Below are positions 2,342-15,232 of a stretch of 64,000 bases of DNA, piece after piece. Source of the DNA: Alphaproteobacteria bacterium. Its GTDB lineage: Bacteria; Pseudomonadota; Alphaproteobacteria; UBA7985; JAUIBT01. The DNA lies in the NCBI GenBank assembly GCA_030428255.1, contig JAUIBT010000004.1:66604-130603 (forward strand), written 5' to 3'. A program made the translations under genes and the position numbers. Under the pieces are notes generated by a model that saw only the letters and a list, made by a program, of their open reading frames with translations, did no database searches and was not told where the DNA came from. Positions within the stretch are counted from its first letter, which is position 1, and every line of letters starts with the position of its first letter.

Positions 2342-5300
2342 TTAGCTGCGCTCCTGGACCAAATCGACGTTCAGACACAAAGCCCGCAGTTCTTTGGTCA
2401 AAACGTTAAAGGATTCCGGGATACCCGCTTCAAAGTTGTCGTCGCCGCGCACGATGGCCTCATAGACCTTGGTACGGCCCGCCACGTCATCCGACTTGAC
2501 GGTCAACATCTCCTGCAAGGTATAGGCAGCGCCGTAAGCCTCCAGCGCCCAAACCTCCATCTCACCAAAGCGCTGTCCGCCGAACTGCGCCTTACCGCCC
2601 AAGGGCTGCTGGGTGACCAGCGAGTAAGGACCAATCGAACGCGCGTGCAGCTTGTCGTCCACCAAGTGGTGCAGCTTCAGCAAGTACTTGTAACCCACGG
2701 TCACCTTGCGGTCGAACTGCTCGCCGGTACGACCGTCGAACAACTCGCTTTGACCCGAGCCATGCAGACCTGCTTTTTCCAGCAGCTCTTCGATCTCTGA
2801 CTCGCGCGCACCGTCGAACACGGGCGAGGCCATGGGCACGCCGTTGACCAAGTTGCCAGACAGCTCCAGCACCTCGGCATCGTTCATGTCCGCGATGGAG
2901 TCGTTGAAGATCTCCTCGCCATAGGCGGTCTTCAGACGCTCTTTGACCTCTGAGAGATCGCTGACCTGCTTGTGCTGATAGGCTTCAATCGCTTGACGGA
3001 TTGAAACGCCCAGACCGCGCGCGGCCCAGCCCAAGTGGGTCTCCAAAATCTGACCCACGTTCATGCGCGAAGGCACGCCCAAGGGGTTCAGAACGATGTC
3101 AACCGGCGTACCGTCGGCCAAGAAGGGCATGTCTTCGATGGGGTTAATCCGCGAGACAACACCCTTGTTGCCGTGGCGGCCCGCCATCTTATCGCCGGGC
3201 TGAAGCTTCCGCTTAATGGCGATATAGACCTTGACCATCTTCATGACCCCAGGAGGCAGCTCGTCGCCACGCTGGATCTTGTCGGCCTTGTCCTCAAAGC
3301 GCTTGACGATCTCGTCAACCTCTTGATCGAATTCCTGCTTGGCGCGCTCGATGGCAGCCATGGTCTCGTCGTCTGCAACCGAGAAGAGACGCCAGTTGCC
3401 TTGCGGAATTTCTTCCAGCATGGCTTCGTCGATCACTTCAGCGCTGGACGAGCGCGCCGGACCGTCAACGATGGTCTGGCCCAACAGCAGCTCGCGCAGG
3501 CGGAAGAAGAATGAGCTTTCGATAATCGCGCGCTCGTCGTCGCGGTCTTTGGCCAAGCTTTCGATCTCTGAACGTTCAATCGCCAGAGCGCGCTCGTCCT
3601 TGTCGATGCCGCGGCGTGAGAAGACGCGCACATCAACCACGCAGCCCGAAGAGCCTGGCGGCAGGCGCAGCGAAGAATCGCGCACATCCGAGGCCTTCTC
3701 ACCGAAGATCGCGCGCAACAACTTTTCTTCTGGCGTCATCGGGCTTTCGCCTTTGGGTGTCACCTTGCCAACCAGAATGTCACCGGCTTTGACCTCAGCG
3801 CCGACATAGACAATGCCTGCTTCGTCGAGGTTGCGCAGCGCTTCTTCACCGACGTTAGGGATGTCGCGGGTAATTTCCTCGGGTCCCAACTTGGTGTCGC
3901 GGGCCATCACCTCGTAATCGTCGATGTGGATCGAGGTATAAACGTCGTCCCGCACGATGCGCTCAGAGATGAGGATCGAGTCCTCGAAGTTGTAACCCTG
4001 CCAAGGCATGAAGGCCACCAACACGTTCTTGCCCAAAGCCAGCTCGCCCAAGTTGGTCGAAGGACCGTCGGCGATGATATCGCCGGCCTTGATGCGGTCG
4101 CCGGTCTTCACAAGCGGCTTTTGGATGATACAGGTCGATTGGTTCGACCGCTGGAACTTGGACAGCTTATAGATGTCCACGCCCTCTTCGCGGCCGGTGT
4201 CATCGTTGATCACGCGGATCACGATACGCCGTGCGTCCACCTGGTCCACAGCACCAGAGCGGCGCGCCACAACCGCAGCACCGGAGTCGCGGGCAACCGT
4301 GCGCTCCATGCCGGTGCCGACGAAGGGCGCTTCAGACACCACCAACGGCACAGCCTGACGCATCATGTTCGAGCCCATCAGGGCGCGGTTCGCATCGTCA
4401 TTTTCCAAGAAGGGAATGAGCGAGGCCGCAACCGAAACAATCTGCTTGGGCGAAACGTCGATGTAGTCCACGTCGCCGGGCGTCACCAGCAGCGATTCAC
4501 CATCGCGGCGGACCGACACCAGCTCACCAGAAAGCTTGCGCTCGGCGTCGGTTGAGGCGTTGGCCTGAGCCACGGTGTAGTGGGCTTCTTCGATGGCTGA
4601 CAGGTAAGTCACCTCGTCAGACAACTGGCCGCCCTCTTCAACCTTGCGGTAGGGGCTTTCGATAAAGCCGTATTGGTTGACGCGGGCATAGGTGGCCAGC
4701 GAGTTGATCAAACCAATGTTCGGACCTTCGGGGGTCTCAATTGGACAAATCCGGCCGTAGTGGGTCGGGTGGACGTCGCGCACCTCAAAGCCCGCACGCT
4801 CGCGGGTCAGGCCGCCTGGGCCCAAGGCCGACAAGCGGCGCTTGTGGGTGATCTCAGACAGGGGGTTGGTCTGGTCCATGAACTGCGAAAGCTGCGACGA
4901 GCCAAAGAATTCACGCACCGCGGCCGCCGCGGGCTTGGCGTTGATCACGTCTTGCGGCATGACGGTGTCGATTTCGACCGACGACATACGCTCGCGGATC
5001 GCGCGCTCCATGCGCAGCAGGCCAACGCGGTATTGGTTTTCCATCAGCTCACCGACCGAGCGCACACGACGGTTGCCCAGGTTATCGATGTCATCCGGCC
5101 CGGCGCTGGAGTCCTTCATGGTATGCAGCGTGCGCACGATAGCGATCAGGTCTTCACGGCGCAGAACCCGCAGGCTGTCTTCGCCTTCCAGTCCCAGGCG
5201 GGCGTTCATCTTCACGCGGCCAACCGCAGACAAGTCATAGCGCTCTTGGTTGAAGAACAGCGATTGGAACAGGTCTTCGGCGGTCTCCAAGGTGGGCGGC

Positions 5301-6523
5301 TCGCCCGGGCGCATAATGCGGTAGATGTCCAGCAAAGCATCTTCGCGGGTGGCGTTCTTATCGACGGCCAGAGTGTTGCGCAGGTGGGCGCCCACCTGGT
5401 TGTGGTCGATCGACAGAATTTCCAGCTCTTCCTGGTTCATGTCGGCCAGATAGTCGAGCAGGTCTTGGGTGATCTCGTCGCCCGCTTCGGCAACGACCGC
5501 GCCGCTTTCCTCGATGTAGTCGGTCGCCAGGTAGCGTCCAATCAGGTCATCTTCGGGAACCAGATAGGCTTTCATGCCGCCATCCAGCAGCTTGCGTGCC
5601 TTGCGCGGCGACAGCTTGGTGCCTGCCTCAGCGACCACCTCACCGGTGTCAGCGTCTTGCAAGTCGCGCTCCAGCTTGACGCCCTTCAGCGCCGTCGGGT
5701 TGAAGTCCAGCGTCCAACCACGGCCTTGAGCGTCCTTTTTATAGGTCACGGAGCCGTAGACGATGCTCAGGATTTCCTCGCGGGTCATGCCCTGCACGTC
5801 GCGGCGATCGATGGCGCGGCCTTCGGCGGCGGCCTCTTCGCGCTTGGCGGCGGTATAGTTGCTGTCCAACGCCATCAGCAAGGTGGTGGCGGGCAGCTTA
5901 CGACGGCGGTCGATACGCACGTTCATAATGTCCTTGGCGTCGAACTCGAAGTCCAGCCAAGAGCCACGGTAGGGAATCACGCGCGATGAATAGAGGTACT
6001 TGCCAGACGAGTGAGTCTTGCCGCGGTCATGGTCAAAGATCACGCCCGGCGAGCGGTGCATCTGAGAGACGATCACGCGCTCAGTGCCATTGACGACAAA
6101 GGTGCCGTGCTTGGTCATCAGCGGCATGTCGCCCATGTAGACGTCTTGCTCTTTGATATCGCGGATCGAGCGCGCGTCGGTGTCCTCGTCGATTTCCCAG
6201 ACCACCAGGCGCAGCGTAACTTTCAGCGGCGCAGCAAAGGTGATGCCGCGCGACATACACTCTTCGACGTCGTACTTGGGCTCTTCGAGTTCGTAGGACA
6301 CGAACTGCAATTCGGCGCGGTTCGAGAAATCCTTGATCGGGAAGACCGAGTGGAAGACCTCCAACAGGCCCGCCATCTCGCGCTCATCGTGGCGCATATT
6401 AGCCTGCAAGAAGCGCTCGTATGAGCGACGCTGAACCTCGATGAGGTTCGGCATCTCGATGACTTCGGGGATGCGGCCAAACGAGCGACGGATGCGCTTG
6501 CGTTCAGTAAAGGACTTGCCCAT
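2342..6523 (-). CDS. rpoB: DNA-directed RNA polymerase subunit beta (1393 aa)
   Basis: Full-length ORF in track; N-terminus [40 protein letters not shown] and conserved rpoB blocks throughout; stop TAA at 2342-2344. Confidence 0.97.
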
Positions 6524-6930
6524 GGACCTACCATCTAATTTGGAGCCTTGTGCAAGCAGGCAGCGTGGGGAGGGCAGGAAAAGCGGCCAATCTCAGCCGT
6601 ATCAAACGCCAACAGCGCAGACGACCTGTCTCCAAACCTGGGGGCCGCTGCGCACTCCGACAAGCTAATCGCTTACCAAGAAACTCGAGTTGTCAATGAA
6701 ATCACCAAAGTGATTGGCAGCGCAGAGATCTGCACCACGTTCAATAGAGAGGGGGAGTTGCGGCGGCACCATCCATTCGTGCCGGTCGGGCTGTATAGGC
6801 GCAAAACTGTGGCTTGACAAGGGCGAATGGGCCGGTCTGCGTCGCTTGGCGCTGGCAAATCGCCCGACGGTGAGGCTTTGCGACATGCCGTCGCAACCTA
6901 AAATAGGTCTAACCCCACCACTTCTAAGCG

Positions 6931-7743
6931 CTATTCGTACGACTCGCACACAAAGTCGATGTTGCAATAACTGCCCGCAGTACAGATTTCTTTGGGGGCG
7001 CCACAAGATTCACCGACGCCCTTGACGAACTTAAGCGTCGAGCTGCTCTCGCACAGTTGCTGATCGTTGCAAAAGCTGCCTTGGGCGCACTCATCTTGCG
7101 GGCCGCCACAGAACTGGCCAATGCCGCGAATGAATTTGAGCTGGCTGGCTTCGCAGCGCTGTTGGGCGTTACAAAAGCTGCCAATGGTGCATTCATCGGT
7201 TGGTCGGCCGCAGTACTCGCCAATATCCCGCAAAATCCGGATCGTCTGTTGTGCGCAAATGTGGCGGTCGTTGCAGTAGGTGCCCGGCTCGCAAACATCC
7301 GACGAGCGTGCACAGGATTCGCCCAAGCCCTTGACCACGCGCGCACCAACACGCTCGCAGACGCTGTATTCGTTGCAAAAGCTGCCAAACTGGCACTGGT
7401 CTTGCCCGCCTGAGCAAGACTCACCAATGCCGCGAATATTTCCGCCTGCGCTGCGGCCTTGGCAGATCTGCTGCGCGTTACAAAAGGCACCGTCTTGGCA
7501 GATGTCGCTGGGGCCGCCGCAGTATTCGCCGATGCCGCGAATAATCTGCACCGATTTCGACTGGCAAATTTTGTATTCGTTGCAAAACGCGGTCGGCGTG
7601 CACTCGTCATAGGGTCCGGCACAAGAGTCGCCAATGCCTTTGATGAACTTGATGCCTTGGGATTGGGCAGGGGCCAGAGTGGCGAAGGCCAGCAAGCCGG
7701 ACGCCAGCAACAGGGTCAACAATACTCGATCAAAGAGCTGCAT
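6931..7743 (-). CDS. secreted cysteine-rich tandem-repeat protein (270 aa; signal peptide + seven ~31-aa repeats each with 4 Cys, pattern I(K/R)GIGExC-x6-C-x5-C-x5-C); unknown function
   Basis: ORF 6931..7743 translation MQLFDRVLLTLLLASGLLAFATLAPAQSQG (signal peptide) followed by repeats IKFIKGIGDSCAGPYDECTPTAFCNEYKICQ / VQIIRGIGEYCGGPSDICQDGAFCNAQQICQ / ...; co-directional with rplL and rpoB; GC slightly lower than neighbours. Confidence 0.7.
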   Translation of the reverse strand: MQLFDRVLLTLLLASGLLAFATLAPAQSQGIKFIKGIGDSCAGPYDECTPTAFCNEYKICQSKSVQIIRGIGEYCGGPSDICQDGAFCNAQQICQGRSAGGNIRGIGESCSGGQDQCQFGSFCNEYSVCERVGARVVKGLGESCARSSDVCEPGTYCNDRHICAQQTIRILRDIGEYCGRPTDECTIGSFCNAQQRCEASQLKFIRGIGQFCGGPQDECAQGSFCNDQQLCESSSTLKFVKGVGESCGAPKEICTAGSYCNIDFVCESYE

Positions 7744-8037
7744 GACGGGCTCCTTTCCTCTTCACCGCAATCTCATCGTGAGAGAAGTGGGGACGCTAGG
7801 CGCAAGATTGCTGTATCCTGGATAGCCAGCTCTGGCGAAGGACCGGTGCCCTGGGCGAGTGGTGCAGACCGCAAATCCGATCTTGTCCAGCGCTGGCAGT
7901 GCCAAAATGAGGACGCGATCCACGTCTCCACCAACACAAAATCAGGCACAAAAAAAGCGGCTGGCGCCACCCGAGCCATGTCGGGGAAACCAGCCGCTTG
8001 AAACGGCAAAAGCCGCGCGGTGTCGATAAGCCGAAGC

Positions 8038-8424
8038 TTACTTGATTTCGACGCTCGCGCCTGCTTCTTCCAGCTTCTTCTTCAGCTCTTCAGCTTCGTC
8101 CTTCGGCACGCCTTCTTTGACGGGCTTGGGAGCGCCTTCAACCAGTTCCTTGGCTTCTTTCAAGCCCAGGCCGGTGATCGCGCGAACTTCCTTGATCACG
8201 TTGATCTTCTTCTCGCCAGCAGAGGCCAGGATCACGTCGAACTCGGTCTTCTCTTCAGCAGCAGCAGCAGCTTCAGGTGCAGCGGCCATCATCATCATGC
8301 CGCCGCCAGAAGCAGCTTCTACGCCCCACTCGTCTTCCAGGCGCTTGGCCAGGTCGGCGGCTTGCTTAACGGTCAAAGCTGACAGCTTTTCTACCAATTC
8401 ATCGAACAATGCATCATCAGACAT
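8038..8424 (-). CDS. rplL: 50S ribosomal protein L7/L12
   Basis: Translation [37 protein letters not shown]...[58 protein letters not shown]; start ATG at 8422-8424 (track ORF starts earlier at a spurious Met). Confidence 0.95.
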
Positions 8425-8508: not shown

Positions 8509-9033
8509 TCAGGCGGTTTCTGCCAGCTTGTCTTCGTACGCCTTGATGACGCCGACGACCTTCTGAGCAGGGGCCTTGAGAACACCAGCCATTTTGGCTG
8601 CAGGTGCTTTGAGCAGGCCGGCCAGCTTGGCGCGGATCTCGTCCAATGTCGGCATTTTCGACAGGACGTTGACGACACCATCAGCATCAAACAGTTCGCC
8701 TTCCATGGCGCCACCGATGATTTCCAAGTTGTCGCTGCTCTTGCAGTAATCGACCATGATTTTCGCTGCTGACGAAGGGTCAGTAGAGAAAGCCAGTGTC
8801 GTTGGGCCTTCCAGGATAGGGCTGAGAGGCTCAAAGGGTGTTCCTTCGATCGCGATGCGCACGAGGCGGTTTTTCGCCACGCGGAAGGAGCAATCCTTCT
8901 CACGAATTTTGCCACGCAGGTCTTGGGTCTTCGCAACGGTCATGCCTTTTTGACGGGCAACGACCACTGACGTAGACGCCTCGAACTGAGCGCGAAGTTC
9001 TTTAACCAACGCTTCCTTTTTTGCGCGATCCAT
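8509..9033 (-). CDS. rplJ: 50S ribosomal protein L10
   Basis: Translation MDRAKKEALVKELRAQFEASTSVVVARQKGMTVAKTQDLRGKIREKDCSFRVAKNRLVRIAIEGTPFEPL...; directly upstream of rplL. Confidence 0.93.
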   Translation of the reverse strand: MDRAKKEALVKELRAQFEASTSVVVARQKGMTVAKTQDLRGKIREKDCSFRVAKNRLVRIAIEGTPFEPLSPILEGPTTLAFSTDPSSAAKIMVDYCKSSDNLEIIGGAMEGELFDADGVVNVLSKMPTLDEIRAKLAGLLKAPAAKMAGVLKAPAQKVVGVIKAYEDKLAETA

Positions 9034-9441
9034 GCGGATCTCCTTTCAAAAAGGTAGGGTTAGAGGAAGTAGCTCTAGCCAAACAGCACCAAGACGCCCA
9101 AAAGCCCCCTGACCACCACTCGGTCAAAGCCACACCGCACAACACTGTCCAAAGGAAGCAAAACCATCATTATCGGTTGCAGCGCCCAGCCGAAGCAGTG
9201 CTGCGTCCACAAAATCTGGCTCAATCGCGTTCCGTCTAGAAAGGGAGATTACAGCGCCCGCTTGGCCTAAGCCGCCCGTTTGCCGACCCAATCGTCTTGG
9301 ACAGTTCGCTTCAATGAGACGAGCCGAACCCGTCCCAACAAAGAGAGCGGCTAGATAGAACAAGGCCGGATCAAGAGTCAAGCCCGGATTGCACCACCCA
9401 ACCAGCGAGCTGAGCCTGCCTGCAAAACCAGCGCTTAGAGC
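9034..9441 (-). promoter_or_regulatory. rplJ leader region (expected L10-L12 autoregulatory mRNA leader / promoter); no structure verified
   Basis: 408-bp non-coding stretch upstream of rplJ start; position-based inference only. Confidence 0.3.
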
Positions 9442-10341
9442 CTAATCCTTAAACAGGGCCGCGTAGCGCGGAATAAAGTACTTAGCGAAGGCCTTGACCT
9501 CAGCCCGGCGATAGGCGTCGGGCGCGATCAGCACCATGTGCTCGGCGTTGAGCGCCGCGGGCGGCTCGAAACAGCGGATCACTGCCCCTGCTTTTTCCTT
9601 TGCCGCAATCAGGCGCAGATTCAACAGCCCCAACCCCTGACCCGCATAGACCGCAGCGTACATCAAGCTGGTCTCGCTATAGATCCGCGCCAACTTGTCT
9701 TCGGGCACATAGTGCGTCAGCCAGTCGTGCAGGGTCGGCCGGATATCCGAGCGCTTAAAGGAGAACACGGCGTGCTCGGCCAGCTCCTCGGGCTTGGTTG
9801 GCAAGCCGTGCTTGGCTGCATAGTCCGGCGTACCGTAAACGCTATACCGCGCCAAGCTGATCGTCCGGCAGATCAAATCGGGATCTTGCGGGCTGCGGCT
9901 CAGGCGCAGCGCGATGTCGGCCTCGCCTGCCACCAGATCAAGGGTCTGCATACTCGGCAGGAATTCGATCTGAATCTTGGGGTGCAGCGCGCAGAACTCG
10001 TTAAAGATCTGCGACACCCGTTCGCTGAAATTGGTGTCGAATCCAGTGATGCGGATCGGGCGCGGCTGGCTCAAGTCTTGGACCTTGCGGCTCAGCGCCC
10101 CTGCTGCGTCCTCAAAGGCTTCAGCGATTGGCAAGATGGCCATGGCATCCTTGGTTGGCTTGAAGCCCCGCGTGTCACGTACAAACAAGGTCAGACCGGT
10201 CTCGTGCTCCAACGCGTCGATGCGGCGCGCGACAGTAGGTTGAGCCAGCCCCAACACCTTCGAGGCCGCCAGGGTCGAGCCCTCACGCACCACGGCGAGA
10301 AAGATTCTCACATCCGACCAAGAGCGAAACTCGTTCTTCAT
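9442..10341 (-). CDS. LysR-family transcriptional regulator
   Basis: N-terminal HTH MKNEFRSWSDVRIFLAVVREGSTLAASKVLGLAQPTVARRIDALEHETGLTLF then LysR substrate-binding domain; start chosen at MKNEF (ATG 10339-10341). Confidence 0.85.
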   Translation of the reverse strand: MKNEFRSWSDVRIFLAVVREGSTLAASKVLGLAQPTVARRIDALEHETGLTLFVRDTRGFKPTKDAMAILPIAEAFEDAAGALSRKVQDLSQPRPIRITGFDTNFSERVSQIFNEFCALHPKIQIEFLPSMQTLDLVAGEADIALRLSRSPQDPDLICRTISLARYSVYGTPDYAAKHGLPTKPEELAEHAVFSFKRSDIRPTLHDWLTHYVPEDKLARIYSETSLMYAAVYAGQGLGLLNLRLIAAKEKAGAVIRCFEPPAALNAEHMVLIAPDAYRRAEVKAFAKYFIPRYAALFKD

Positions 10342-10343
10342 AT

Positions 10344-10359
10344 TTGTAGAACAGCACAA
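10344..10359. promoter_or_regulatory. candidate LysR-type box (TTGTAGAACAGCACAA, partial dyad TTGT-N8-ACAA) in divergent promoter region
   Basis: Imperfect palindrome just upstream of the LysR start and upstream of divergent small ORF/ChaC/amn genes. Confidence 0.2.
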
Positions 10360-10437
10360 AATTTGCGCCTCTACCAGCCCCTAAGGGCCAAGGCTTATCT
10401 TGAGAGCATCCGCTCACCGACGAACAGGAGACCGCTC

Positions 10438-10701
10438 ATGTCCGCTACATTCATGCCCCACCTGCCCTCCTTGACCCGCGCCCTGGCATCCTTGCGCGGT
10501 CGGGTTCACGCAGCGCGTTCCGCCGTTCGCGCCCGCCGCGCCCAGCGGGCACAAGAGCGCTTGGCCGAAGCCGAAGCGAAAGCAGCCTATGACGACCGCT
10601 ACAGCCAGCGCGAGTTCATCCAAGAAATTATGGCCCGCAACCCCGATGCCTTTGCGAGCGACTTGGACGTGGAGGCATTTTTGCAATACTGTCCGCGTTG
10701 A
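10438..10701 (+). CDS. small hypothetical protein (87 aa), Arg/Ala-rich N-half
   Basis: ATG preceded by AGGAG RBS (gaacAGGAGaccgctcATG); lies in extension of a longer antisense ORF; divergent from LysR. Confidence 0.4.
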   Translation: MSATFMPHLPSLTRALASLRGRVHAARSAVRARRAQRAQERLAEAEAKAAYDDRYSQREFIQEIMARNPDAFASDLDVEAFLQYCPR

Positions 10702-10761
10702 AACCAACCAACGCGAGGGGGCTGGCCTGGGCCCGCCACCCTTCGTGACGAGGACACCTGC

Positions 10762-11538
10762 TTGACACCACCATCGGACCCCTTTGCCCATCACCCCGAG
10801 CTGCGCGGACGCATCGACGATCCGTACCGCTCCTTCTTCCGCGATTTCAGCGTCGAAGGGCTGATGGCGCGCTTCCCCCAACTCGAAGAGCATCGCGGCT
10901 GGGTCTACAGTGACGCGGTACGCGAGGCCATGCGGGCAGAAGCACTGCGCCAGCACAGCGGCGATCTTTGGGTCTTCGCTTATGGCTCCTTGATGTGGGA
11001 CCCGGCCCTTGACTTTGCCGAGGTGCGGCGCGCCCGACTTCAGGGCTATGCCCGGCGCATGATCCTGGTCGATGCCCGCGGCGGACGCGGCACCGCTGAG
11101 GCCCCTGGGCTGATGGCCGCGCTGGACGAGGATCCGGCCTTTGGAGGTCCTGGCGACCCGGCCACGAGCTGCGAGGGCCTGGTGTTTCGCATCCCAGCGG
11201 AGGCGGTGGATCGCGAGACCGAGATCTTGTGGCGGCGCGAGATCGTTGGCCCGGCCTATATCCCGCGCTTCGTTGACGCCCATCTGGACCAAAGCTCCGT
11301 CAAAGCTCTGACCTTTGTGGCCGATCACGCGGTGCCTGACATCCAACCCGAGCTGAGCCGCGCCGATCAGGTGCGCCTTATCGCGACTGGTGCGGGCTTC
11401 TTGGGCTCAAGCCGCGACTACCTGGCCAACATCGTTCGTCACTTTGAGGCCATGGGCATTCACGACCCAGACTGCGCCAGCCTGTTCGAGGAGGTTGAAG
11501 CCCTGCGCGCCAGCCTCACACAGCCGCCTCAACCCTGA
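10762..11538 (+). CDS. ChaC-like gamma-glutamylcyclotransferase (paralog 1)
   Basis: Contains the ChaC/GGCT hallmark VFAYGSLMWDP. Confidence 0.8.
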   Translation: MTPPSDPFAHHPELRGRIDDPYRSFFRDFSVEGLMARFPQLEEHRGWVYSDAVREAMRAEALRQHSGDLWVFAYGSLMWDPALDFAEVRRARLQGYARRMILVDARGGRGTAEAPGLMAALDEDPAFGGPGDPATSCEGLVFRIPAEAVDRETEILWRREIVGPAYIPRFVDAHLDQSSVKALTFVADHAVPDIQPELSRADQVRLIATGAGFLGSSRDYLANIVRHFEAMGIHDPDCASLFEEVEALRASLTQPPQP

Positions 11539-11549
11539 AAGCACAGCCC

Positions 11550-12287
11550 ATGACCGACCAAGCGAGTCACAAAGAAGACCGTCGCATCGGCCGATCACCA
11601 CAAGGCACAGCGGGGCTGCGTCCTGCGCTGCGCCTGACCCGCGCGCTGGTCGATCGCCTGCCGCAGCGCTGTGAGGAGCGCGGCCCCGTTCTGGTCAGCT
11701 CCCCCGAGCTTGCCTATTACCACGACACCGCCAGCCAGATCCTGGGCGCGTTAGAGCCAAACGAAGCGCTGTGGGTCTTTGCGGCCGGATCGCTGATCTG
11801 GAACCCGCGCATGGTGGTGGTCGAGCGCCGCACTGCCTTTATCCAGGGCTGGCGACGCGCCTTTTGCATTCAAGACCGGCGCTTTCGCGGCTCGCCCAAC
11901 CGGCCAGGGCTGATGATGGCTCTGGCTCAGGGCGGCGACTGCCAGGGCGTTGCGCTGCGCATGGACCCTGGCGATGATGCCGTCGCGACGCTGGTCAGCC
12001 TGTTGCAAAAAGAGCCGCCGGTGCCGCCGCCGTTGGTCACCGCTGAGACCGACCAAGGCCCGGTCAAGGCGATCGTCTTCGCCGTCGACGCCAGCTTTCC
12101 TATCTTTACCCCAGAACCCGCCATGGCCCGGCTGGCGGACATGCAGGCGCGCGCGGTCGGCTATAGCGGCACCATGGCGGAGTACCTGTTGAACACCGTC
12201 ACCGAATTGGAAAAGGCGGGCATCCACGACCCCCACCTGTGGGAGCTGCAAGACCAAGTCGCCGAACGCCTGTTGCGGCTGGCTTAA
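11550..12287 (+). CDS. ChaC-like gamma-glutamylcyclotransferase (paralog 2)
   Basis: WVFAAGSLIWNP motif; similar length (245 aa) and C-terminal ...YLxNxVxxxExxGIHDP block shared with paralog 1. Confidence 0.75.
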   Translation: MTDQASHKEDRRIGRSPQGTAGLRPALRLTRALVDRLPQRCEERGPVLVSSPELAYYHDTASQILGALEPNEALWVFAAGSLIWNPRMVVVERRTAFIQGWRRAFCIQDRRFRGSPNRPGLMMALAQGGDCQGVALRMDPGDDAVATLVSLLQKEPPVPPPLVTAETDQGPVKAIVFAVDASFPIFTPEPAMARLADMQARAVGYSGTMAEYLLNTVTELEKAGIHDPHLWELQDQVAERLLRLA

Positions 12288-12344
12288 GCGCGGCACAATC
12301 AACGCCAGCTTGAATTCGCCCGCGCTTGGGCCTAAGCCTGTTCG

Positions 12345-13736
12345 ATGCAGACTTACACCACCCCCCATGAGGCCGTTGAGGCCCTGATCGCGCTCTATGA
12401 TCAAGAGACCGGTCGCCTGCGCACCACCTTCGAAGCCTTTGTTGCTGGCGACGAGCCAGACGCCCCCGTGCGCGCCTATTACCCCGAAATTCGGGTCACC
12501 ATCACCGAGGCCCTGAACGACCACGACGGTCGCTCCTATGGCTTTTGTGATACCCGCGGCGAGTTCTCGACCACCCTGACCCGCCCAGACCTGTTCCGCC
12601 ATTACCTGCTGCGCCAGCTCAAGGAGCTGCGCCGCAACCACGGCTGTGATTTCCAGGTAGGGCTCAGCGATTTGCCGATCCCCATTCACTTCGCCTTTTC
12701 TGAGGGCATCTATGTCGAGGGCGCCTTTAGCGCTGACAAGCTGCAAGCCTTCAGCCGCCTGTTTGACGCCCCGGACCTGGCGACCATGGACGACCAACTG
12801 GTCAATGCCGAAGTGGATTTTCTGGGCTCGACCCTGCGCCCGTTGGCGCTGTTCAACGCCCCGCGCATGGATTATTCGCTGCACCGCTTGCGCCACTATA
12901 CAGGCACGGCCGCCGAGCACTTCCAGAGCTTTGTGCTGTTTACCAACTACCAGTTCTACGTGGATGGCTTCCGCGAGCTGGCCGAACGCAGCGTCGCCGA
13001 TTCCGCCAGCCCCTACATCGCCTTTGAGGAGCCGCATGCGGGCAATCCGCAGATGCCCGCCTATCACCTGAAGACCGCCGACGGCAGCGGCATTACGCTG
13101 GTCAACATCGGCGTAGGGCCCTCGAACGCCAAAACCATGACCGATCACATCGCAGTGCTCAGGCCCTCGGCCTGGATGATGCTGGGCCATTGCGCGGGCC
13201 TGCGCTTGACCCAGAGGCTGGGCGACTTCGTGCTGGCCCACGGCTATGTACGCGATGATCATGTGCTGGATGCCGACCTGCCGCTGTGGGTGCCGATCCC
13301 AGCGCTGGCCGAGGTGCAGCAGTCGCTAGAGCAGGCCGTCGCCGAGGTCTCGGGCCTGGAGGAAGACGCGCTGAAGCGGGTCATGCGCACCGGCACCGTG
13401 GCCTCGATCGACAACCGCAACTGGGAGCTGCGCGATCAGGCCGAGCCCGTGCGGCGCTTCTCTCAATCGCGCGCGATTGGCCTGGATATGGAGAGCGCGA
13501 CCATTGCCGCCAACGGCTTTCGCTTTCGCGTCCCCTATGGGACGCTGCTGATTGTCTCGGACCGGCCGCTGCACGGCGAGCTGAAGCTGCCCGGCATGGC
13601 CAGCCAGTTCTATCGCACGCAGGTGGCGCGGCATTTGGAGATTGGGGTGCGGGCCATGGAGCTGTTGCGCGATATGCCCGAGAGCCGCCTGCATTCGCGC
13701 AAGTTGCGCAGCTTTAACGAGGTTCCGTTTCGTTAG
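12345..13736 (+). CDS. amn: AMP nucleosidase
   Basis: 463 aa; N-terminal Amn-specific domain plus C-terminal PNP/UDP-type phosphorylase domain (GLDMESATIAANGFRFRVPYGTLLIVSDRPLHGE). Confidence 0.8.
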   Translation: MQTYTTPHEAVEALIALYDQETGRLRTTFEAFVAGDEPDAPVRAYYPEIRVTITEALNDHDGRSYGFCDTRGEFSTTLTRPDLFRHYLLRQLKELRRNHGCDFQVGLSDLPIPIHFAFSEGIYVEGAFSADKLQAFSRLFDAPDLATMDDQLVNAEVDFLGSTLRPLALFNAPRMDYSLHRLRHYTGTAAEHFQSFVLFTNYQFYVDGFRELAERSVADSASPYIAFEEPHAGNPQMPAYHLKTADGSGITLVNIGVGPSNAKTMTDHIAVLRPSAWMMLGHCAGLRLTQRLGDFVLAHGYVRDDHVLDADLPLWVPIPALAEVQQSLEQAVAEVSGLEEDALKRVMRTGTVASIDNRNWELRDQAEPVRRFSQSRAIGLDMESATIAANGFRFRVPYGTLLIVSDRPLHGELKLPGMASQFYRTQVARHLEIGVRAMELLRDMPESRLHSRKLRSFNEVPFR

Positions 13737-13840: not shown

Positions 13841-15232
13841 CTAGTCTTCGCTGTCGTCTTCTTCGTCTGCTTGCCAATGTGCTGGGCGGAACAGCCCTGG
13901 CGGCAATTTGGTGTGCCGGGCCCCTCGGGCGGCATCGATTTGCACTTGAGTCAAATTTTTTGATCTTCCAAAATCTAGCTTCTGAAAAAATGACTGGCTC
14001 AATACCGCCCTCGAGAGATTGGCTCCCGCCAATCTTGTCTCAATCAGTTGTGCCCTGCTCAAATCTGCCTCTTCAAGTATAGCATTAGTCAGATTGACCT
14101 TGTTCAAATGGGCTCTGATCATTCTCGCCCGCGTAATGTCCGCGCCTTTCAAATCGGCTTCGTACAATCTCGCACCGCCCATGCTGGCCCCAACAAGCTT
14201 GGCTCCAACCAACTTGGTCTCGATCAGTTTTGCAGCGTTTAGTTCTGCCTGCCACAAGTTGGCACCGATCAACTCAGTTCCCACCAGATCGGCTCCGTTC
14301 AGTTTGGTACTTGACAGATTTGCACCATTGAGAACGGCTTTGCTAGCAAGCGCACCTGTTAGGTTTGCTTCCCAAATCGCCGCCTTTTCAAAATTTGTAC
14401 CGATCAACTTTGCGCGACGCATATCCGCCTTCATCAATAGGGACGCTGTGAGATTATATCCTATCAAATTGGCCCCACTGAAAACAGCGCTACGGAAATC
14501 GACTTCGCAGAAATCCAGTGCTTTGTCATACGAAGAAAAACCCGCAGCAAATACCCCGCTCAAATCAATATATTTGTCACCGGGTACGCTCCGCCTGCGA
14601 CCGATCACTGTCAAGACACAGCAAATATCTAGGTTTGAATCTGAACCCTTGATCAGCTGCTCGGCAGCGTCGTTGCCCAGATCAGCCAGATCATCAACTG
14701 TCGGAAACGCCTTGGATTGCTCACGGGCAAAGCCGCTCAGGGTCTCAATGATCGACCAATAGAGATTGAAGTCGGTGTCCTGCACATCGCGCATCACCCT
14801 TTCCAGCGTATAGATTGCGCCGATCCGCACCGCCATTTTGTCAGACCCAAGTTGCTCGTAAGCCTTGGTCAAATCAGTCGAAATCTGTGTGTCCAGCGCG
14901 ACCTTGGCCTGAAGTCGGGAAGTCTCAGCTTCCTTTGCCGAAATGGCGTTGCGCCATATCCACATCGTGGCCAAAGCAATACCGGCCCAAAACGTCAGCA
15001 GGCCTGCTACGAGTTGCGCAATCGAATCTGGGTCTTTGAAAGCCTCCGCAGCCAGCGACGAACGGATCAGCGGAATCAATCGAGCAAAGAACGCCCAATT
15101 CGCGCCGAAGAACACTCCGACAAAAATCGCCACAAGCCAGAGCGGCAAATCCCATTGCCCACCGCGCCAAGGAACGGAAGCCACCCATTTGGCAAATCGG
15201 CTCTCCTTGTTCGCGTTTTTTGGCTCGGCCAC
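13841..15232 (-). CDS. membrane-anchored pentapeptide-repeat protein (463 aa)
   Basis: N-terminal TM helices (WLVAIFVGVFFGANWAFFARLIPLI, LVAGLLTFWAGIALATMWIW), C-terminal ~200 aa of A(D/N)LxxAxL pentapeptide repeats, acidic tail ADEEDDSED. Confidence 0.8.
   Translation of the reverse strand: MAEPKNANKESRFAKWVASVPWRGGQWDLPLWLVAIFVGVFFGANWAFFARLIPLIRSSLAAEAFKDPDSIAQLVAGLLTFWAGIALATMWIWRNAISAKEAETSRLQAKVALDTQISTDLTKAYEQLGSDKMAVRIGAIYTLERVMRDVQDTDFNLYWSIIETLSGFAREQSKAFPTVDDLADLGNDAAEQLIKGSDSNLDICCVLTVIGRRRSVPGDKYIDLSGVFAAGFSSYDKALDFCEVDFRSAVFSGANLIGYNLTASLLMKADMRRAKLIGTNFEKAAIWEANLTGALASKAVLNGANLSSTKLNGADLVGTELIGANLWQAELNAAKLIETKLVGAKLVGASMGGARLYEADLKGADITRARMIRAHLNKVNLTNAILEEADLSRAQLIETRLAGANLSRAVLSQSFFQKLDFGRSKNLTQVQIDAARGARHTKLPPGLFRPAHWQADEEDDSED

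Follow-up and report, generated by a model that had tools for sequence, protein, structure and literature searches.

A seven-repeat cysteine-rich gene between rplL and rpoB

The window, by which we mean the whole stretch of 64,000 nucleotides (nt) analysed here, comes from an uncultured alphaproteobacterium (contig JAUIBT010000004.1). On its minus strand, rplL (L7/L12, 128 aa, 8038-8424; its homologues carry the Pfam domains Ribosomal_L12_N and Ribosomal_L12) and rpoB (1,393 aa, 2342-6523, from the list of open reading frames (ORFs) and the sequence) are separated by a spacer of 1,514 bp (6524-8037). A single co-directional ORF of 270 aa, referred to here as the cysteine (Cys)-repeat gene, occupies positions 6931-7743 (minus strand, stop codon included; supported by its orthologues). 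This bears out a preliminary description of the locus as a gap of about 1.5 kb with a co-directional 270-aa gene.

The 28 Cys residues of the product are spaced by 6, 5 and 5 residues in seven blocks parted by 14 or 15 residues. Each repeat is a C-x6-C-x5-C-x5-C unit with a period of 34-35 aa (a 30-aa core and a linker of 4-5 aa), instead of the roughly 31 aa first proposed. From Cys spacing and repeat alignment, the repeats were placed on the minus strand at aa 31-64 (repeat 1, 7552-7653), 65-98 (repeat 2, 7450-7551), 100-133 (repeat 3, 7345-7446), 134-167 (repeat 4, 7243-7344), 168-201 (repeat 5, 7141-7242), 202-235 (repeat 6, 7039-7140) and 237-270 (repeat 7, 6934-7035). Alignment of the seven 34-aa units gave the consensus xxxIRGIGESCGGPxDxCxxGSFCNxxxxCE, or in degenerate form phi-[KR]-phi-phi-[RK]-G-phi-G-[EDQ]-x-C-G-G-P-x-[DE]-x-C-x2-G-[SAT]-[FY]-C-N-x4-C. 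The FCN motif, initially placed before the last Cys, actually includes the third one.

Residues G8, C11, C18, C24, N25 and C30 are invariant in 7/7 window repeats and in all 21 modules of the three orthologues described below. Every one of these 21 modules also has F or Y directly before the third Cys (C3) and R or K before G-x-G (module position 5). No CC, CxC or CxxC motif occurs in the protein. The absence of such clusters, together with the aromatic residue before C3 and the invariant glycine and asparagine, points to a structural disulfide scaffold, and two disulfides per module appear plausible. When a degenerate DNA pattern for G-x-G-x2-C-x6-C-x2-G-x-[FY]-C-N-x4-C was run over the window, its five matches all fell within the 6931-7743 ORF, while 100 shuffles gave none. 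Tandem repetition could not be detected at the DNA level in the gene, and the repeats are therefore old.

By inspection, the N-terminal part (aa 1-26, 7666-7743, minus strand) resembles a Sec signal peptide. It includes a 15-residue hydrophobic core (residues 7-21, mean Kyte-Doolittle value 2.5) and a [A/T/V]-P-A|Q site common to all three orthologues; neither a lipobox nor a twin-arginine motif is present. In the window protein cleavage is predicted at A-P-A|Q after aa 26, with an alternative at A-Q-S|Q after aa 28. The signal peptide and seven four-Cys repeats described at the outset were thus found again, the repeats directly and the signal peptide as a prediction by inspection, conserved in three orthologues. 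The predicted mature chain would be about 244 aa long (about 26 kDa), acidic (isoelectric point around 4.8) and rich in Cys (11.5%), with hardly any His, Met or Trp.

A scan covering one genome for each GTDB species gave a single relative, the metagenome-assembled genome 'Alphaproteobacteria bacterium 7_bin.81' (L001). Its orthologue is 81% identical and sits between rplL and rpoB just as in the window. A third lineage, represented by contigs L005-L008 (ENA, NCBI, JGI and Logan), was reached via the closest rplL homologues and carries a 270-aa orthologue of 73% identity, again right after rplL. Two further rplL contigs (P0007 and P0008) stop right after rplL and are uninformative on the junction. 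Comparison of the three lineages revealed zero indels and 28/28 Cys kept, with repeat n pairing with repeat n throughout. This repeat-by-repeat correspondence implies that the seven-fold array is older than the split of the three lineages. Conservation of the Cys spacing in homologues had been set beforehand as the test of a structural repeat, and the spacing is fully kept in both orthologous lineages. The established range is at least three lineages, all of uncultured alphaproteobacteria, whose closest named rplL relatives (Stappiaceae, Terasakiella, Rhodospira) are only 75-78% identical. A literature search on the sample environment of PRJEB25810 returned nothing.

Between orthologues, the proportion of nonsynonymous differences (pN) is 0.11-0.19 for a proportion of synonymous differences (pS) of 0.72-0.78, a saturated value with which positive selection cannot be assessed. 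Substitutions are located mostly in loops and linkers, as judged from the 21 modules. The Shine-Dalgarno sequence is conserved (AGGAAAGGAG in the window, 7750-7759, minus strand, 6 nt 5' of the ATG; AGGAGAGGAG in L006; AGGAAAGAG in L001) and the start codon is kept too. The Cys-repeat ORF is therefore a real gene under purifying selection.

The rate is uneven along the protein. Between the window and L006 (L006 2263-2982), pN reaches 0.28 in repeats 1-4 and 0.07 in repeats 5-7, repeat 6 being 100% identical, although the rplL of the L006 lineage is the closest to that of the window (98%). The contrast could result from a lineage-specific acceleration or from recombination in the N-terminal half.

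The gene has a GC content of 57.1%, and its GC content at third codon positions (GC3) of 0.69 is intermediate between the values of rplJ/rplL (0.63) and rpoB (0.78). The preliminary description had found GC and codon use slightly off-core, with more TTT, AAT and ATT codons. TTT and ATT are indeed mildly enriched, whereas AAT, used for 1 of 8 Asn, is not; GC3 falls within the range of the flanking genes and codon use is ordinary, so the off-core character does not hold. Recent horizontal transfer was rejected on the ordinary GC3 and the saturated synonymous divergence between orthologues, which together indicate an old resident of the clade instead of a recent insertion.

Transcription signals and gene order around the junction

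A long GC-rich hairpin followed by a run of 7-8 U lies directly 3' of rplL in all three lineages (window, L001 and L005/L006). In the window this terminator or attenuator, identified by folding and conservation, consists of an 11-bp outer stem and an inner stem, then U7 (7950-7999, minus strand). The 93-nt rplL-proximal stretch holding it has a minimum free energy of -40.7 kcal/mol (z -2.5). Judged from its sequence, it is a strong intrinsic terminator of canonical type.

The stretch from the terminator to the start codon (114-206 nt) is poorly conserved, except for the Shine-Dalgarno sequence and a short element upstream. This element, GTCCC(A/C)..T...CTGA(G/A)A(A/T)T (GTCCC...CTGAGAAT), stands 15-45 nt 5' of the Shine-Dalgarno sequence and is common to the three lineages by comparison (window 7760-7800, minus strand; L006 ~2100-2150; L001 ~7945-7985). 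It could be a promoter or an element of the 5' untranslated region. Past the stop codon, folding predicts a branched hairpin without a U-run in the window (6869-6919, minus strand), while a hairpin with a U-run is found 3' of the gene in L001 and L006/L007.

On the rpoB side, a promoter-like TTGTCA-N17-TATACA (6792-6820, minus strand) is common to the window and L001. It is a match in sequence that a stricter promoter scan did not list. The non-coding block that begins with this site (6603-6821, minus strand) is 82% identical to L001 8921-9143 along 225 nt, rising above 90% in its core, despite the saturation of synonymous sites. Rfam gave no match on the spacers, this block included. We consider the block a candidate rpoB promoter with a regulatory leader RNA; it may be as interesting as the Cys-repeat gene itself.

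With a terminator after rplL and a promoter-like site and leader before rpoB, the Cys-repeat gene lies between two transcription units. The prediction of very high read-through from its position, made in the preliminary description, is therefore not upheld, given the conserved terminator and the promoter-like site that rpoB has of its own. Partial read-through of the rplL terminator is possible, as in Escherichia coli where the rplL-rpoB attenuator lets part of transcription through (PMC4670729). As in the E. coli rplKAJL-rpoBC cluster, a terminator-type element right after rplL would decouple ribosomal-protein and RNA polymerase expression. In contrast to E. coli, terminator and rpoB are here separated by a whole gene, a promoter-like site and a conserved leader belong to rpoB itself, and rplKA is not upstream of rplJ.

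We further examined the junction in four related alphaproteobacterial contexts (L009-L012, rplL 75-80% identical), where rplL is followed by other genes or rpoB is missing from the site altogether. L009 (rplL 80% identical; 3501-5057) has a 1.2-kb gap to rpoB with two small ORFs (59-aa, YjiS-like). A divergent sigma-factor gene and parC follow rplL in L010 and L011 (3501-5200), and an MFS transporter does so in L012 (3501-5105). In the L006/L007 lineage, the Cys-repeat gene is followed not by the rpoB leader but by a convergent gene ending about 250 nt past it (L006 3232-3348; L007 1886-2020; minus strand), with the C-terminus VLIQLHVDKEVADRLQANSAVDWPVYINALLRTWLMID, which we take to resemble a BrnA-type antitoxin. 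The contigs of this lineage all break close to the convergent gene.

Upstream of rplJ (window 8509-13736), where rplK-rplA is absent, come genes for a LysR regulator, for two ChaC-like proteins in tandem and for an AMP nucleosidase, an order also seen in L005 1-4916. In this lineage the classical rplKAJL-rpoBC cluster is thus broken up. The junction had been presented as lying within one of the most conserved operons, a view that does not fit the related alphaproteobacteria, where it is often interrupted or lost. In the synteny check advised at the same time, the gene does occur right after rplL in two other lineages, conserved and with no named domain; the junction otherwise varies, and the position is less special than it had seemed. 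Since it varies among relatives, the location of the gene is a curiosity and not an anomaly. Farther out, a pentapeptide-repeat protein gene (463 aa, 13841-15232, minus strand) has a GC content of 0.52 and GC3 of 0.57, compared to a window average of 0.61, and may have been acquired horizontally.

Searches for relatives of the module

No Pfam family was found for the Cys-repeat protein, the only match being a chance one to UL128 (E 0.009) that did not pass the cut-off. Likewise, NCBIfam (0 families), PHROGs, PADLOC and PDB sequences gave no match, a word-indexed protein search returned no homologue, and fold searches with Foldseek gave nothing significant. The initial view that the module is not a named domain was confirmed by these results. 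Searches of viral contigs, and of plasmids and phages by tblastn, were empty; together with the PHROGs and PADLOC results, they gave no sign that the gene belongs to a phage or a defence system.

A peptide-pattern scan of metagenomes found nothing, and a DNA-pattern scan of metagenomes produced three single-module loci (L002, L003 and L004). L003 was rejected as unrelated. L002 was set aside as an irregular four-Cys, Dickkopf-like protein with a sub-threshold Dickkopf_N match (E 0.036); the window protein itself does not match Dickkopf_N (PF04706) even at E<=10. L004 (1625-2593, minus strand) is a metagenomic ORF for a 322-aa Cys-rich lipoprotein-like product with a single 'GIGEECGGSSGTCALGAFCNENWICE' module, whose score with the module profile is 36.6 bits. 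Outside the positions that the pattern dictates, this module also shares I, E, G-G and a trailing E with that of the window. The score is inflated because the search pattern pre-selects 10 conserved residues, and the module is present in one copy in an otherwise irregular Cys-rich protein without Pfam or NCBIfam family; its homology is unproven.

When 1.84 billion representative proteins were searched with a seven-repeat profile, two marginal matches were all that came up, P0001 and P0002 (E 8e-5 and 3e-4). These are giant myxobacterial-type proteins made of 53-aa six-Cys units ('CDDGxFCNGxExC...CTxDxC'), which share the sub-motif C-x2-G-x-F-C-N-x4-C with our module. The two units differ in length (53 versus 34 aa), in Cys number (6 versus 4) and in register, and the match spans 15-18 columns only. 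Both proteins were rejected as family members after unit extraction and an hhalign probability of 51% over 18/34 columns, and the likeness appears to be a shared motif and not demonstrated homology. TIGR02232, the Myxococcus cysteine-rich acidic repeat, did not match the window protein either.

These empty searches should be read with the coverage of the collections in mind. The L006/L007 orthologues, which are called genes on public contigs, would exceed 320 bits if scored with the profile, but the protein collections searched do not contain them. Similarly, the metagenome pattern scan did not return the L005 JGI contig, whose modules nonetheless conform to the pattern. A listed rplL sequence (P0003) is identical to that of the window. 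Since known orthologues are missing from what was searched, the results mean that there were none in what was searchable and are no proof of absence.

In architecture, the protein resembles the secreted cysteine-rich repeat proteins (SCREPs), a descriptive class said to have bacterial examples (PMC6262176; ScrepYard, PMC9885460). It shares with them a length below 500 aa and a tandem unit that would be disulfide-rich, and its N-terminus has the look of a secretion signal. With 270 aa, 28 Cys and seven repeats, it falls within the published bounds on size and Cys content (20-500 aa, at least 4 Cys, a tandem Cys-rich unit; PMC6262176). SCREP is nevertheless a label for architecture, not for a homologous family or a function. 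Whereas 98.4% of catalogued SCREPs match at least one InterPro database feature (PMC6262176), the module of the window protein matches no Pfam or NCBIfam family. It is an unnamed, lineage-restricted family of Cys-rich repeats, and the secreted cysteine-rich repeat proteins are the broader, already known kind to which it belongs.

A proposed disulfide-stapled array and its alternatives

The anatomy of the Cys-repeat protein is secure, while its function is a guess. The reading that we favour, tentatively and with somewhat less than even confidence, is that of a lineage-restricted, exported chain of hairpin modules, stapled by disulfides, that would work as a stable scaffold or multivalent binder. 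The protein would be exported by Sec, its signal peptide cut after A26, and the chain oxidised in the periplasm to form 14 disulfides, two per module. Each module would most likely fold as a small two-disulfide beta-hairpin similar to a disulfide-directed beta-hairpin (DDH), and the seven modules would form an elongated, rigid and protease-resistant array. Whether periplasmic, surface-bound or extracellular, this array could serve for multivalent binding or as a scaffold, by analogy with the Myxococcus TraA stalk (PMC12045341) and SCREP-type proteins (PMC6262176). The cysteine-rich repeat region of TraA has been modelled as beta-hairpins forming a presentation stalk (PMC12045341). TraA and P0001/P0002 have in common with the window protein that they are bacterial, exported, hairpin-rich Cys-repeat proteins, export and hairpins being predictions for the latter. 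The gene would form an expression unit of its own, with the rplJL terminator on one side and the promoter and leader of rpoB on the other, and would be transcribed by partly reading through the rplL terminator, from its own promoter that went unrecognised, or by both routes.

The proposed fold draws on a published consensus and on structure models. The DDH consensus is C-X4-19-C-X2-(G/P)-X2-C-X4-19-C (PMC3381931), and the window module, C-x6-C-x2-G-x2-C-x5-C, fits it in 6/7 window repeats and in 19/21 modules, those with Gly at the diagnostic position. Two independent AlphaFold2 runs, both of low confidence, placed a beta-hairpin over C3...C4 in 6/7 modules of the full-length protein and in 2/2 modules of a di-module. 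The DDH toxin U1-liotoxin-Lw1a was among the non-significant Foldseek matches (E 9.6). The protein has no match of sequence, or significant match of structure, to DDH peptides, and those cited are arachnid venom toxins.

Several observations speak against this favoured reading. The DDH consensus is very permissive, so that the fit is weak evidence, and the AlphaFold2 models are poor (predicted local distance difference test values of 41.6 and 59.4). Homology searches gave no functional support for a binder or scaffold role. A convincing promoter (sigma-70 site) for the Cys-repeat gene was also looked for upstream, and none was found.

A first alternative, which we regard as unlikely, is a multi-headed protease inhibitor in which each disulfide-locked module would offer a protease-blocking loop, either to protect periplasm or surface or to affect a host or a competitor. 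In eukaryotes, tandem small disulfide-rich inhibitors work in this multi-headed manner. Small, rigid Cys modules in tandem, whose loops vary while the Cys stay fixed, would suit such a role, and the uneven repeat rates between the window and L006 would fit modules with different targets. However, searches of Pfam, NCBIfam and PDB linked the protein to none of their inhibitor families, a conserved residue that might form a reactive site is not apparent, and pN stays well below pS throughout, giving no sign of an arms race.

We hold it to be quite unlikely that the gene is a functional member of the rplJL-rpoBC unit, with a role in the ribosome or RNA polymerase or with very high expression by operon read-through. 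Its co-directional position directly after rplL in all three lineages, and the leakiness of the E. coli attenuator (PMC4670729), would agree with this. The three lineages are closely related, though, so that the shared position may be simply inherited, and ribosomes and RNA polymerase, being cytoplasmic, are out of reach for a disulfide protein that is exported. An operon member is expected to have no terminator or promoter between itself and its neighbours; here the gene is preceded by a strong terminator and followed by a promoter-like site and leader of rpoB's own. In L006/L007, moreover, it is the convergent antitoxin-like gene and not the rpoB leader that comes after the Cys-repeat gene.

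A polyprotein precursor, cut at the basic residue before each G-phi-G into seven disulfide-rich peptides of about 34 aa (antimicrobials, toxins or signals), seems improbable to us. The R or K present before G-x-G in 21/21 modules, a module size equal to that of known disulfide-rich peptides and the SCREP-type architecture (PMC6262176) would be in line with this possibility. Against it, the basic residue is inside the conserved strand-like phi-K-phi-phi-R-G segment, which looks structural and not like a linker exposed for processing. Among the neighbours there is no gene for a protease, a transporter or immunity, and repeat order and copy number are unchanged between lineages.

Very improbable, in our view, is a metallothionein-like protein binding or buffering metal in the periplasm through 28 thiols. 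The acidic mature chain, with its Cys content of 11.5% and near lack of His, Met and Trp, would suit metal binding. Metallothionein-like clusters are nevertheless lacking: Cys spacings are only 5, 6 and 14/15, so that Cys are 5-6 residues apart without CC, CxC or CxxC, with conserved aromatics, residues scarce in metallothionein-like proteins, next to Cys (F/Y before C3 in 21/21) and invariant Gly and Asn. The predicted hairpins, an export route leading to an oxidising compartment and the absence of metal-resistance genes nearby also argue against it. Finally, that the ORF is a chance one or a decaying remnant, for which nothing speaks apart from the absence of database homologues, has next to no probability and was rejected, as three orthologues without indels or stops keep 28/28 Cys, pN far below pS, the Shine-Dalgarno sequence and the start codon.

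A bolder version of the favoured array, to which we give little credence, would be an undescribed, secreted bacterial two-disulfide mini-domain in seven copies, whose synthesis the cell deliberately ties to the transcription of ribosomal-protein genes through leaky termination after rplL. If this coupling were true, a disulfide-rich binder, inhibitor or peptide precursor would be exported in proportion to growth rate, as a bacterial counterpart of the multi-domain disulfide-rich toxins and inhibitors of animals. The present results on the Cys-repeat gene and its locus settle no open question. They suggest that the rplL-rpoB junction in this alphaproteobacterial group is a boundary between two transcription units, able to accept genes, and the locus also exposes a strongly conserved candidate rpoB leader. 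If the module folds independently as a two-disulfide hairpin, it would represent an unnamed domain family worth a Pfam entry and, among disulfide-rich mini-domains, a new bacterial and genetically simple scaffold for peptide engineering.

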